Program-made: the position numbers and the translations under genes
Source of the DNA: a virus
Length of the DNA: 64,000 nt
Virus record (IMG/VR): IMGVR_UViG_3300017780_005043
Direction: 5' to 3' (one strand)
In this document: one piece after another, positions 40,455 through 51,027 of the stretch
Position numbering within the stretch: the first letter of the stretch is position 1
Layout: every line of letters starts with the position of its first letter
The notes under the pieces: generated by a model
Database searches by the model: none
Seen by the model: the letters and a program-made list of their open reading frames with translations, nothing else
What the model was told of the DNA's origin: nothing

Positions 40455-43037
40455 TTATTTTTTCTTAGGGCAACCGATTACTGCTTTAATACCTTTAGTA
40501 AGTTCAATAGTTCTGAAAGAATCATCTTCAAACTTATCGGGAGATACTTGTCTAAAACGAACAGTAGTTGATTTATCATCAGCAATAGTTCCTTTGTAGT
40601 TGTTTTTATCCAACCATTTCACCGCTTTAGTCTTATTGAAAAATTCTTTAGAGAAAATGATAGTTTGAATTTTAGTTCCAACTGGGCATTTAGCTATTGA
40701 ACCACCTTTTTCAAAAATCTTAGGTTCTTTAGATTGGTATTCAGCAACTACTTTTCTTCTGTATTCTGCTGTTGCTTTATCCCCAGAATTTTCATCAGCT
40801 TTAGCTGCTTGTAAAAAAATGTTTCTTAAATACATCATGCCGTTTCTATCGTGTAATGTTTTAGCACTTGTATTTATTAATTCTTTGTCAACAACACCGC
40901 CTTTAGCGTATTCAAATTCATCAGACTTTTCTAATCTGTATAAGATAAACCACTCTTCATCTTTTAATTTATAGTATCTCGAATCTTTATTTTCTTTAAT
41001 CCTATTTAATTCGTGGCGTAAATTATATAATTGTTTTTCAAGTTCTGTTTTATTTAAAGAACCTATATACTTAAAAGTTTCTTCACCTAAATTAGCTCTA
41101 ACTTTATCAATGCTTTTAACAACACCACCTTTAGCCATTTTATCTATCTTTCTCAAATTGAATGGCACTGCATCTAAACCGTAATCAAAAGTATATCCTA
41201 AAGGCTTCAATTCCTTTTGCATTTCCTCTAAATCTGCGTAATCACCATCTTCATCTTGGTAGCTACTTAATACATCTTGAATATTAACAGGTAATTCATC
41301 ATAGTTTTCAAATAAATCTTCTTCTTCAATGTTTCCACCGTCCTCGAATTTTTTAGTGTACGTTTTATAGCCATTTTCTTTACGAATTTCTTCAATAGCT
41401 TCTACAACTTTAACAGGTGACAAAAGATACATTCTTGAATAAACCTTAACTACTCCTGTTTCATTATTAGGTTTAAGAGTAGGAGAACCTTCTATAACTC
41501 TCTTAAATAAAGAATCTTCTTTTAGTAATTCTTTTCTTTCTTTTTCAGATTTATAAAGAACCTCTCTTTGTTTACTGTTTGTTACATTACCACCTTCCTC
41601 GAATTTCTCTATAATCTCATTAGCCAACTCTTTTATTCCTTTTTTATCTTCTTTAGTGTAAATAGATAGCATAAAAGGTTTATCAGAATCATTTCTATAA
41701 ACAACAATATTCAAATAAACATTTTCAGAACCAGAAGTTGCTTCAATTTGTTTTGCATAGCCTATTGATAAAGATTCGTCTTTATCTTTTTTACTAATTT
41801 TACCTATTGAAATAAAATCATCTTGCTTAAATTCAGTTCCACTGTTTGTTTTAACCTCTTTTAAAGGAGAAAATGTGTTTAATTGAATATCAGAAGAGTA
41901 TTCATTTTTGATGTAATCACTCAATTCGTTTAAAGTGAAGTTTTGCCAATTAATAGACGAAACATTTCCACCACTTTCAAATTTATCAGATTTTTTAACC
42001 TTAACATAGTCGTTGCCTAAAAAATAGTCAAAACCTATTGTTATTGGAGATTTTTTATCATACCAATTCTTATTCTCATCTGTTTTTACAGGCTCAAAGT
42101 AAGCTAATATTTGTTCGTTACCTTCATATAATTTCCCTGTAAATTTAAGAGGTATTTTCGGGTCTACGCTGTATATGTAAACTTCCCCTTTAACTAAATC
42201 GTCAGCTTTTAGTCCTAATTTAGTTGACGTTCCGCCTTTAGCGAATTTAGAAACAGAATCACTAATGCCATTCAAATCTTTCAATTCATCTTCAGCATCT
42301 TTTTTATCCTTATGCCACTCACCAACGTAATCATTGTCAATTCCTACTACATGGTAAAGCGCATGGTTATTTTTGTGGTCATGCCCTGTTACTATCTTGT
42401 AATCAGATTCTTTTTTACTAGACTTAGGCTCTACCACACGGTACTTATCAAAATCTTTACTTGTAGCAGGTCTTACTTTTTTGTTTTTAAGAAACATAAC
42501 GTCACCCACCTTATCTCCAAAACCAATTTCTTTAGGGTCAATAGCTATTACTTCAGCTTCATCAGTACCCTTAGTGTTGTTGAATCGGCTAGGAATAGTC
42601 ACAGCTAACATTTTCTCGTTAACTACAATGTATTTATCTCCTGCATCAACGTTACCACCATCTTCAAATCTCTTACGTGGGTTAACATCACTTCTATTCG
42701 GTCTTTTTTCATAGTAAACATTACCATTAGCAGAAATACGTTTACCACCTTTCATTGCGATACGTTTAGAATCTTTTGCTAAATCATCTTTACTTCTACC
42801 TACTCTATGGCGATTAAATTCTTTTTTATCCGCAGTAGAAACTTTTTCTTTCTTAGCAGGTTTGGCTTTAACTTCTTTTTTAGGTTCAGCAACTTTCTTA
42901 ACAGGTTTCGCCTTTTCACTTTTTTTATCCAACTTCTCTAACGAATCAATCTTAGCTTGAACACTCTTTTTTTGAGCAGCAGTAAGGTGTTTGTTATTTA
43001 AACCTTTTTTAAGTTTTTCTATAAGTTCCTTTGACAT
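40455..43037 (-). CDS. large multidomain (polyvalent-type) virion/injected protein
   Basis: 860 aa with a Lys-rich N-terminus. Nine occurrences of the x-G-G-[NSV] punctuation motif (FEDGGNV, FAKGGTS, FESGGNV, FEEGGNV, FEDGGNI, MAKGGVV, YAKGGVV, FEKGGSI, AMKGGKR). Confidence 0.5.
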   Translation of the reverse strand: MSKELIEKLKKGLNNKHLTAAQKKSVQAKIDSLEKLDKKSEKAKPVKKVAEPKKEVKAKPAKKEKVSTADKKEFNRHRVGRSKDDLAKDSKRIAMKGGKRISANGNVYYEKRPNRSDVNPRKRFEDGGNVDAGDKYIVVNEKMLAVTIPSRFNNTKGTDEAEVIAIDPKEIGFGDKVGDVMFLKNKKVRPATSKDFDKYRVVEPKSSKKESDYKIVTGHDHKNNHALYHVVGIDNDYVGEWHKDKKDAEDELKDLNGISDSVSKFAKGGTSTKLGLKADDLVKGEVYIYSVDPKIPLKFTGKLYEGNEQILAYFEPVKTDENKNWYDKKSPITIGFDYFLGNDYVKVKKSDKFESGGNVSSINWQNFTLNELSDYIKNEYSSDIQLNTFSPLKEVKTNSGTEFKQDDFISIGKISKKDKDESLSIGYAKQIEATSGSENVYLNIVVYRNDSDKPFMLSIYTKEDKKGIKELANEIIEKFEEGGNVTNSKQREVLYKSEKERKELLKEDSLFKRVIEGSPTLKPNNETGVVKVYSRMYLLSPVKVVEAIEEIRKENGYKTYTKKFEDGGNIEEEDLFENYDELPVNIQDVLSSYQDEDGDYADLEEMQKELKPLGYTFDYGLDAVPFNLRKIDKMAKGGVVKSIDKVRANLGEETFKYIGSLNKTELEKQLYNLRHELNRIKENKDSRYYKLKDEEWFILYRLEKSDEFEYAKGGVVDKELINTSAKTLHDRNGMMYLRNIFLQAAKADENSGDKATAEYRRKVVAEYQSKEPKIFEKGGSIAKCPVGTKIQTIIFSKEFFNKTKAVKWLDKNNYKGTIADDKSTTVRFRQVSPDKFEDDSFRTIELTKGIKAVIGCPKKK

Positions 43038-51027: not shown

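Follow-up and report, generated by a model that had tools for sequence, protein, structure and literature searches.

The 64,000-nt stretch of viral DNA analyzed here (the window, in which position 1 is the first letter; IMG/VR record IMGVR_UViG_3300017780_005043) encodes three giant proteins, p1663, p987 and p860, in which a short peptide centered on Gly-Gly recurs. The three genes make up a hypervariable island in an uncultured phage of low G+C content and encode polyvalent (multi-effector) proteins, and the peptide is a junction-only element that lies between domains and belongs to neither neighbor. The window contains approximately 33% G+C and no tRNA genes, and nearly all of its genes are directed leftward; identical sequence recurs on contigs, the longest of 67 kb, in a freshwater JGI sample and in Logan assemblies. 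The three genes are transcribed from the minus strand in the order p1663, p987, p860 (Table 1). An earlier note on this DNA had described them as back-to-back, separated by only 1 and 2 nt. Their adjacency and the 1-nt gap between p1663 and p987 were borne out, but the gap between p987 and p860 is 33 nt.

Table 1. Genes, cassettes and Gly-Gly motifs of the island and its flanks, with positions in the window. Motif rows are named by the residue number of Gly-Gly in the protein.
Feature	Position	Strand	Description
p1663	46036..51027	-	polyvalent-type protein, 1663 aa; 10 linker motifs within residues 1-1020
p1663 C-terminal block			643 aa, motif-free; zincin-like domain and coiled coil
p987	43071..46034	-	987 aa, multi-domain; one good motif
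p860	40455..43037	-	860 aa; string of ~9 small cassettes, nine linker motifs
p185	39876..40433	-	small ORF downstream of p860, same frame; one motif-like site (TYEKGGEN)
p250	51982..52734	-	stand-alone GNAT paralog; 50% identical to p1663 residues 104-223
GNAT-like cassette	50362..50730	-	p1663 residues 100-222, bounded by motifs 93 and 226
Cassette 445-566	49330..49695	-	p1663 residues 445-566; most widely shared module, 18 relatives
Four AF2-confident domains	47971..49308	-	p1663 residues 574-709, 717-789, 804-889 and 922-1019, separated by motif-bearing low-confidence linkers
Zincin-like metallopeptidase domain	46498..47262	-	p1663 residues 1256-1510; HEVAH..D, CE-CFARA-E
DUF5661 cassette	44865..45026	-	p987 residues 337-390
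C-terminal cassette CPVGT...AVIGCPK	40458..40694	-	p860 residues 782-860; very widespread
Linker motif, p1663 GG 93	50740..50763	-	VNMKNGGRV
Linker motif, p1663 GG 226	50341..50364	-	LKMAKGGSD; terminates GNAT module
Linker motif, p1663 GG 419	49762..49785	-	NVFDKGGSI
Linker motif, p1663 GG 441	49696..49719	-	GKMAKGGSI
Linker motif, p1663 GG 571	49306..49329	-	NEFSSGGSI
Linker motif, p1663 GG 715	48874..48897	-	KKMAEGGVI; AF2 low-confidence segment 710-716
Linker motif, p1663 GG 795	48634..48657	-	KKMAEGGVT; AF2 low-confidence segment 790-803
Linker motif, p1663 GG 893	48340..48363	-	VRYKDGGNV; AF2 low-confidence segment 890-921
Linker motif, p1663 GG 916	48271..48294	-	LMFEEGGNI; segment 890-921, past 23-aa acidic spacer
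Linker motif, p1663 GG 1020	47959..47982	-	SVKNGGSL; last before conserved C-terminal block
Linker motif, p987 GG 130	45636..45659	-	KFMRGGKV
Motif-like site, p860 GG 97	42738..42761	-	IAMKGGKR; opens mini-module KGGKRxSxxGxxYYExRxNRSD
Linker motif, p860 GG 127	42648..42671	-	KRFEDGGNV
Linker motif, p860 GG 268	42225..42248	-	SKFAKGGTS
Linker motif, p860 GG 356	41961..41984	-	DKFESGGNV
Linker motif, p860 GG 482	41583..41606	-	EKFEEGGNV
Linker motif, p860 GG 567	41328..41351	-	KKFEDGGNI
Linker motif, p860 GG 637	41118..41141	-	DKMAKGGVV
Linker motif, p860 GG 713	40890..40913	-	FEYAKGGVV
Linker motif, p860 GG 778	40695..40718	-	KIFEKGGSI

A recurrent peptide at domain junctions

Every one of the ten motif copies that had been listed for p1663 and of the nine listed for p860 was found. 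Of the two claimed for p987, one is good (FMRGGKV, residue 130), and the remainder amounts to one or two weak sites (LSEGG at residue 189 and ILEGG at residue 243). The core [FMY][AESKD][KEDSN]GG occurs 17 times in the 3,510 amino acids (aa) of the three open reading frames (ORFs), as opposed to a single occurrence in the remaining 16,604 aa of the window; 5,000 shuffles of each protein yielded a mean of about 0.07-0.11 core matches and a maximum of 2. The consensus drawn from 259 distinct instances is [KR]-[FMY]-[AE]-[KED]-G-G-[NSE]-[VI]. When every distinct GG dipeptide of 185 relatives (147,687 aa) was tallied, 1,580 in total and with no preselection for the motif, position -3 proved to be Tyr, Met or Phe in 62% of cases, Met being enriched 9.8x, Tyr 4.8x and Phe 4.4x, while Leu stands at 0.8x. 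In the same tally, Ala was enriched 5.5x at position -2, and Val or Ile occupied position +3 in 47%. The description of the motif as regularly spaced did not hold, as the intervals are irregular and domain-sized, ranging from 22 to 193 aa. Tandem double motifs occur, and two pairs of motifs in p1663 enclose unstructured spacers of 22-30 aa (residues 419-441 and 893-916). The idea that the motif Met serves as an internal translation start was rejected because Phe and Tyr are equally common at that position.

A collection of 5.8 billion proteins yielded 29 relatives of p1663, of which all but P0043 carry several copies of the motif, and so do all 13 of the p860 relatives. In a 50%-clustered library, an exhaustive HMMER search with p860 identified 2,384 relatives (E<=1e-3), most of them unannotated, and the motif was present in 123 of the 144 top hits that were newly fetched. 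Use of the motif is lineage-restricted. When the literature was searched for the motif strings and for linkers, cleavage or processing in polyvalent proteins, no description of the motif emerged, in agreement with the earlier note, whose author could place the motif in no described family.

That the motif punctuates domains had been proposed as well, and four independent lines of evidence agree on this placement: an AlphaFold2 (AF2) model, the limits of Pfam domains in relatives, the ends of homology blocks, and cassette copies located at protein termini. When set against predicted domain boundaries, a check that had been suggested at the outset, the motifs fall in linkers and not in folded domains. 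The AF2 model covers p1663 residues 560-1035 and was built from a 21-row alignment, with a mean predicted local distance difference test score (pLDDT) of 72 and a predicted template modeling score (pTM) of 0.34. In this model, pLDDT drops below 50 only at residues 560-573, 710-716, 790-803, 890-921 and 1023-1035. These segments contain five of the six motifs, and the sixth (GG 1020-1021) is located two residues upstream of segment 1023-1035; the three internal segments make up approximately 12% of the model and contain all four of its internal motifs. Among the four confidently predicted domains, that of residues 574-709 is helical and DUF3140/DUF6321-like. The pTM fits an arrangement of beads on a string. 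A Foldseek search of the four-domain model against the PDB gave no match at E<=0.001, and a full-length AF2 model of p860 (13 sequences, mean pLDDT 41) was too poor to use.

The Pfam domains that were checked in relatives (LPD11, ArdA, ART-PolyVal, DUF5824, DUF5661, NUDIX, RadC and RelA_SpoT) contain no motif, the sole exception being a DUF5824 match that has one at its extreme edge. The closest-fitting domains start 3-8 aa past a GG and end 5-13 aa short of the next; LPD11 starts 7-8 residues past GG in three of three relatives and ends 8 residues short of the following GG in two of the three. Furthermore, 57% of the 76 distinct internal BLAST block ends in p1663 are found <=10 residues from a motif, compared with 12.5% for random positions. 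Finally, cassettes that occupy the N-terminus of other proteins begin with Met and a few residues and lack the motif (MSKYKKCPVGT..., MFRNLDKIK...), the CPVGT cassette ends ...AVIGCPKKK*, again without it, when it is C-terminal, and both the CPVGT and the 'NIDKIK' cassettes are motif-free in their terminal copies. The alternative that the motif is part of the flanking domains was discarded on the grounds that terminal cassettes lack it and that Pfam models end before reaching it.

Synonymous codons vary at motif positions, where codon homozygosity is close to background (for Gly, 0.26-0.44 versus 0.30-0.38; 79 instances from five loci). Because of this synonymous variation, and because the alternation of Phe, Met and Tyr and of Glu, Lys and Asp breaks nucleotide identity, selection acts on the peptide. 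A different explanation would make DNA the conserved element, as a recombination signal for in-frame cassette exchange, and the peptide its by-product. In its favor, the best direct DNA repeats of the region coincide with motif sites and consist of motif codons (e.g., ATGGCTAAAGGTGG, with 11-18 nt of identity), homology breakpoints cluster at the same sites, and Ala at position -2 is encoded by GCT in seven of seven cases in the window. Such a signal is nonetheless scarcely credible, being largely refuted by the variable synonymous codons and the background-like homozygosity at five loci, and the residue alternation keeps the peptide pattern while destroying nucleotide identity. The region contains no relevant tandem repeat. 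The 11-18 nt of microhomology may help exchange.

Small cassettes in an exchangeable island

The three ORFs comprise approximately 25 cassettes, each small (65-190 aa) and folding independently, that are joined by the stereotyped linker. Homology blocks define approximately 10 modules in p1663 and nine in p860, and within 476 aa of p1663 the AF2 model resolves four domains with confidence. This protein starts with a conserved N-terminal module, which is followed by the GNAT-like cassette, the DUF3140/DUF6321-like helical cassette and several functionally unannotated ones. A GNAT-like domain in p1663 had been noted previously; its Pfam match is below the cut-off (Acetyltransf_7, 20.9 bits against a cut-off of 27), but the assignment gains support from the stand-alone paralog p250, which has 50% identity and passes Acetyltransf_1. 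In p250, the GNAT domain runs into a second domain without an intervening motif. The modules of p987 at residues 46-105, 337-390 (DUF5661) and 505-754 recur within polyvalent proteins of relatives. The CPVGT cassette is present without the motif in 11 of 12 IMG/VR loci, and likewise without it in high-GC proteins; when N-terminal in other proteins it begins MxxKKCPVGT and is motif-free.

A basic mini-module of 30 residues, KGGKRxSxxGxxYYExRxNRSD, was observed at p860 residues 90-123 (42669-42770, minus strand) and has no Pfam match. It is found in many relatives, often near the N-terminus (P0002, P0003, P0004, P0011, P0013, P0075, P0132, P0138, P0141 and P0182).

Polyvalent proteins are giant multi-domain proteins of phages and conjugative elements with mosaic architectures, in which one polypeptide combines 2-15 or more unrelated domains and which are packaged in the virion and enter with the DNA. 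Their domain families include anti-restriction, ADP-ribosyltransferase, GNAT, NUDIX, RelA/SpoT, RadC, nuclease and LPD domains together with, commonly but not universally, an embedded zincin-like domain, and their cassettes have been likened to those of polymorphic toxins (Iyer et al., 2017; PMC5512222). Membership of p1663, p987 and p860 in this class, as the earlier note had it, is supported at the sequence level by relatives that share their modules and carry ART-PolyVal, LPD11, PBECR5, ArdA, RadC, RelA_SpoT, NUDIX and GNAT domains. In the window proteins themselves, only DUF5661 reaches the Pfam threshold, GNAT and MPTase-PolyVal being sub-threshold; the phage context includes an HNH homing endonuclease, a glucosaminidase and contigs of 67 kb or more of viral and metagenomic origin. 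No matches were obtained for the three proteins in NCBIfam or in PDB sequence searches, nor for p860 in a search for contigs encoding it or in a scan of viral contigs, and in INPHARED only single modules match, in Cellulophaga and Leptospira phages, with no cultured relative found.

The island shares with the proteins of the original definition (Iyer et al., 2017; PMC5512222) a giant multi-domain make-up, mosaic architecture, a putative embedded zincin-like domain and signature families, but its cassettes are unusually small and numerous, and most of the motif-rich relatives have no recognizable peptidase. No junction motif was described in that work, in which the words linker, glycine, Gly-Gly, boundary and interdomain are absent (PMC5512222). 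What is new here is a defined junction motif in a polyvalent lineage built of mini-cassettes, whereas the idea of processing is itself older.

The variability of the island is apparent from an ENA scaffold (L006) whose proteins are 98-100% identical to those of the window between 30.8 and 39 kb. Its island (L006:1-12502) is nearly wholly different from window positions 39876-51027 and encodes an ART-PolyVal protein of 1424 aa, an N6_Mtase/Eco57I protein of 1007 aa, a RelA_SpoT protein of 833 aa and a 2138-aa protein with ddrB-ParB, SNF2 and Zeta toxin domains and zero motifs. All that is recognizable there of the window proteins is a C-terminal stretch of 49 residues from p987 and an N-terminal one of 44 residues from p860. 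The small downstream protein p185 is only 49% identical to its counterpart in this otherwise near-identical relative, and p185 is possibly the last member of the island. The motif is the breakpoint of cassette exchange between relatives, and the island, with its 98-100% identical flanks, is a natural setting in which to study how cassettes are exchanged as phage and host immunity compete. The host probably belongs to the Bacteroidota, judging from the low G+C content, module matches to Cellulophaga phages and a match in a Bacteroidota metagenome-assembled genome.

Possible readers of the junction peptide

Because six constrained positions are kept at hundreds of junctions between unrelated folds, with Met, Phe or Tyr and not Leu at the hydrophobic one, a common trans-acting factor would appear to read the peptide. 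An endopeptidase is most likely, as the most economical candidate, and would cut the strings into single effectors after synthesis or delivery, in which case the strings would be true polyproteins. The cutter might be a phage or host protease encoded elsewhere, and probably is not the embedded zincin in general. Processing of polyvalent proteins by embedded peptidases, in the manner of viral polyproteins, was proposed earlier (Iyer et al., 2017; PMC5512222). The unstructured 22-30-aa spacers between motif pairs fit cleavage better than they fit the insulation of domains. Taken together, a hypervariable polyvalent island with a junction-only linker and an endopeptidase as its likeliest reader is the best explanation, though a tentative one, and cleavage at the motif, which is predicted from sequence, is plausible while falling somewhat short of probable.

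The earlier note had named two candidate cutters, the zincin-like domain embedded in p1663 and a prohead protease acting in the capsid. The former is a putative assignment: its Pfam matches are sub-threshold (DUF6782, 6e-4, 19.6 bits; MPTase-PolyVal, 0.039, 14.5 bits), but H-E-x-x-H-x-x-D is invariant with its relatives in a Leptospira phage and P0043, and CE-CFARA-E is conserved, although not invariant. A PDB search with the zincin profile gave no sequence match. Zincins often prefer a bulky hydrophobic residue at P1', which the [FMY] or the [VI] positions could supply. Moreover, the zincin block is the constant C-terminal part in the phage lineage while the upstream cassettes are variable, and autoprocessing by MPTase domains has been proposed (Iyer et al., 2017; PMC5512222).

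Cutting by either of these enzymes is nonetheless quite improbable. The zincin relatives in Leptospira phage LE1 and in P0043 contain zero motifs, and the motif-rich loci L005, L007 and L013 have no such zincin within the flank of <=10 kb on each side, although with flanks of this length a missing partner protease is weak evidence. No Pfam peptidase was detected at E<=1e-3 in 29 large motif-rich relatives (49,000 aa). On these three grounds the embedded zincin is unlikely to be the general cutter. No peptidase family was found in the window with Pfam, PHROGs and NCBIfam on the scanned ORFs or in precomputed Pfam annotation of 5.6-61 kb, from which remote homologs may escape. Among the ORFs of the presumed structural region no prohead protease was recognizable, the best PHROG being head scaffolding at E=0.077, and the island stands beside replication-type genes and not in that region, so that packaging of its proteins is itself only putative. 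A hidden Cys-His protease was also considered for the cassette at p1663 residues 445-566, between motifs 441 and 571, and was rejected because it has no conserved His.

In cultured phages, the nearest relative of the zincin was observed to be a hypothetical protein of 684 aa in Leptospira phage vB_LinZ_10-LE1 (L009:4612-6666). It is encoded two genes from a baseplate J-like gene, in an unannotated gene block that starts beside that gene, and the zincin family may be virion- or tail-associated in LE1.

Several considerations weigh against cleavage at the junctions by any enzyme. They include the outcome of the profile searches, which identified no protease in the window and none in the 29 relatives, and the distribution of the p1663 zincin, whose own relatives reside in motif-free proteins and which is absent from the flanks of up to 10 kb around other motif-rich genes. 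Known polyvalent proteins, among them N4 virion RNA polymerase (vRNAP), ArdC and TraC1, undergo delivery without being cleaved (PMC5512222). Tethering might still allow the enzymes of the strings (GNAT, ART, NUDIX) to act, and the helix formers of K-[FM]-A-K followed by Gly could constitute a generic helix stop; short helices terminate at GG in AF2 models, with low confidence. Motif-like C-terminal tails (YSIGGL*) in some relatives are better suited to a docking peptide.

These points lead to a rather unlikely, but substantive, alternative in which the linker is an insulator that remains uncleaved: a helical turn, K-[FMY]-A-K, would be capped by Gly-Gly and followed by a polar and a hydrophobic residue, allowing the cassettes to fold independently, and it would persist since cassettes are inherited and exchanged along with their linkers. 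The motif resembles textbook glycine C-capping of helices. It is found only at junctions and is disordered or flexible in AF2, where helices end at GG in the p1663 model (H150-154 and H230-234) and at residues 482 and 637 in the p860 model (pLDDT 41). Helix formation is strongly favored by the A, E and K found at positions -2 and -1, no peptidase was found in most motif-rich proteins, and block exchange breaks at the linkers. In addition, several characterized polyvalent proteins act uncleaved (PMC5512222). However, a generic cap should accept Leu, Ile and Val at position -3, where Leu stands at 0.8x and Met at 9.8x, and six constrained positions are excessive for a passive linker. Because the same cassettes are joined without the motif in other lineages, as well as in p987, p250 and the 2138-aa L006 protein, insulation is not generally required. 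An insulator would also have no use for motifs in tandem or for the unstructured 22-30-aa spacers that two motifs enclose.

Recognition without cutting is a further alternative. The motif would then act as a multivalent docking peptide for a partner, either in the capsid interior or at the portal for packaging, as encapsulin cargo-loading peptides do, or for a host chaperone that aids refolding or uptake of the string after injection. Conservation at the peptide level with a position specific for Met, Phe or Tyr would suit such a role, the many copies per protein and the tandem double motifs are compatible with avidity, and motif-like sequences form the extreme C-terminal tail (...GFxYSIGGL*) in 14 of 144 relatives, p1663 itself ending DYIGGLEILIEIA. 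These tails bear a loose resemblance to encapsulin targeting peptides (LxIGSLK). Docking is nevertheless improbable, given that approximately one motif is present per junction and none in N-terminal copies of modules, which is the pattern of sites between products, and given that the island lies outside the presumed structural region and no candidate partner was found.

Where such a tail follows directly on a motif, it was observed to be conserved as [motif]GG-xxx-G-[FW]-x-Y-[ST]-I-G-G-L*, while other relatives end ...GWKHK.... The [ST]IGGL* tail was seen in P0051, P0060, P0061, P0064, P0080, P0089, P0104, P0113, P0115, P0120, P0121, P0137, P0139 and P0174, and the p1663 tail, DYIGGLEILIEIA, lies at window positions 46036-46080 (minus strand). 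C-terminal tails of this kind may be docking or sorting peptides.

If an endopeptidase does read the peptide, several known systems provide comparisons. The adenovirus protease adenain cuts at (M/I/L)XGG-X, and pS273R of African swine fever virus (ASFV) is likewise a clan CE protease that acts at Gly-Gly-X sites in polyproteins. At these sites, as here, a hydrophobic residue is found a few positions ahead of a Gly-Gly that separates products, or in the present case predicted domains, but the hydrophobic residue here stands three positions before the first Gly, and profile searches of the window and of relatives found no clan CE or other cysteine protease. In prohead-protease substrates, T4 gp21 cuts at L/I-x-E and phiKZ gp175 at S/A/G-x-E after packaging; large proteins with many copies of a short site are common to these systems and the island, although the type of motif differs and no prohead protease or scaffold was recognized here. 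Double-glycine leaders are single N-terminal export leaders of 15-30 aa that end in GG and are cut by a C39 peptidase ABC transporter. They share Gly-Gly and upstream hydrophobic positions with the motif, but the sites described here are internal, with up to ten per protein, and window annotations include neither a C39 peptidase nor an ABC transporter.

Junctions of polymorphic toxins are marked by VENN in CdiA and by PxxxxDPxGL in Rhs proteins, the latter being cleaved as well. In both cases, as in the island, a short conserved peptide occupies the boundary where variable cassettes swap. In contrast to polymorphic toxins, which have one junction between scaffold and C-terminal toxin and an immunity gene, the proteins of the island have up to ten junctions between many unrelated cassettes, and neither secretion domains nor a pattern of immunity-like small ORFs was found at the island. 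The likeness to the adenovirus/ASFV, VENN/Rhs and T4/phiKZ sites is one of functional analogy.

Polyvalent proteins are a large and poorly understood reservoir of phage counter-defense functions, and their processing has been an open issue since they were defined in 2017. The junction peptide supplies exact candidate cleavage sites and a simple rule for dividing giant ORFs into cassettes. It is possible, though doubtful, that these are true polyproteins of a double-stranded DNA phage, the eight-residue junction being a protease site at which three precursors give rise to at least 20 mini-effectors. Were this true, most of the mini-effectors would be undescribed folds and candidate anti-defense proteins, and the motif would serve as a sequence 'comma' for enumerating thousands of new phage effector domains from metagenomes. 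If the linker instead remains uncut, it would be of interest as a naturally evolved, context-independent connector of domains.

Neighboring genes and further observations

The neighbors of the island are small ORFs without an assigned function and DnaA_C-like, DUF87-like and DUF3799 proteins, the last of which we take to be a PD-(D/E)XK-like family; in L007, RusA is also present. Iyer and colleagues are said to have found phage polyvalent genes usually adjoining head-morphogenesis genes (portal, terminase, MuF). The position of this island beside replication-type genes differs from that reported neighborhood, and no MuF or portal gene was detected near it, with the caveat that structural genes here are unrecognizable to profile searches. 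The presumed structural region (15000-32000, minus strand) includes ORFs that encode 904, 453, 443 and 388 aa, and its PHROG and Pfam matches are essentially limited to a glucosaminidase (19725-20291) and a phosphoheptose-isomerase-like ORF (22023-22433). Sequence profiles do not recognize the virion genes of this phage group, and few ORFs of the window match any Pfam or PHROG family.

An ORF of 284 aa with a weak DUF87 match (34128-34982, minus strand) has homologs of 28-30% identity at L010:2963-3703 and L013:13918-14730, where they stand close to motif-rich polyvalent ORFs in loci that are otherwise unrelated. L006 aside, no other non-polyvalent ORF of the window has homologs at two or more of the five loci that were compared.

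An HNH/NUMOD homing endonuclease is encoded between p250 and p1663 (51017-51829, minus strand) and overlaps the start of p1663 by 11 nt; its gene may have split an older, longer polyvalent gene. Downstream, p987, p860 and p185 (39876-46034, minus strand) share a reading frame, and all that separates them is a single stop codon (TAG, then TAA) and a short run of open codons (11, then 7). Nine such in-frame junctions are present in the window, so the arrangement could have arisen by chance. Stop-codon recoding was considered for these three ORFs and rejected, there being no sign of it: TAA, TAG and TGA are used 46, 14 and 6 times, respectively, and the ORFs are intact under code 11.

At the far end of the window, a reverse transcriptase (RT) ORF of 319 aa (62175..63134, minus strand) matches phrog_1423 at 2e-120 and has sub-threshold NCBIfam matches to group II intron RT, Drt3a and retron RTs. 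The Rfam RNA RT-17 lies directly upstream of it (63132-63214, minus strand), with 46.3 bits against a gathering score of 40.4, and together the two look like a phage-borne module composed of an RT and a non-coding RNA.

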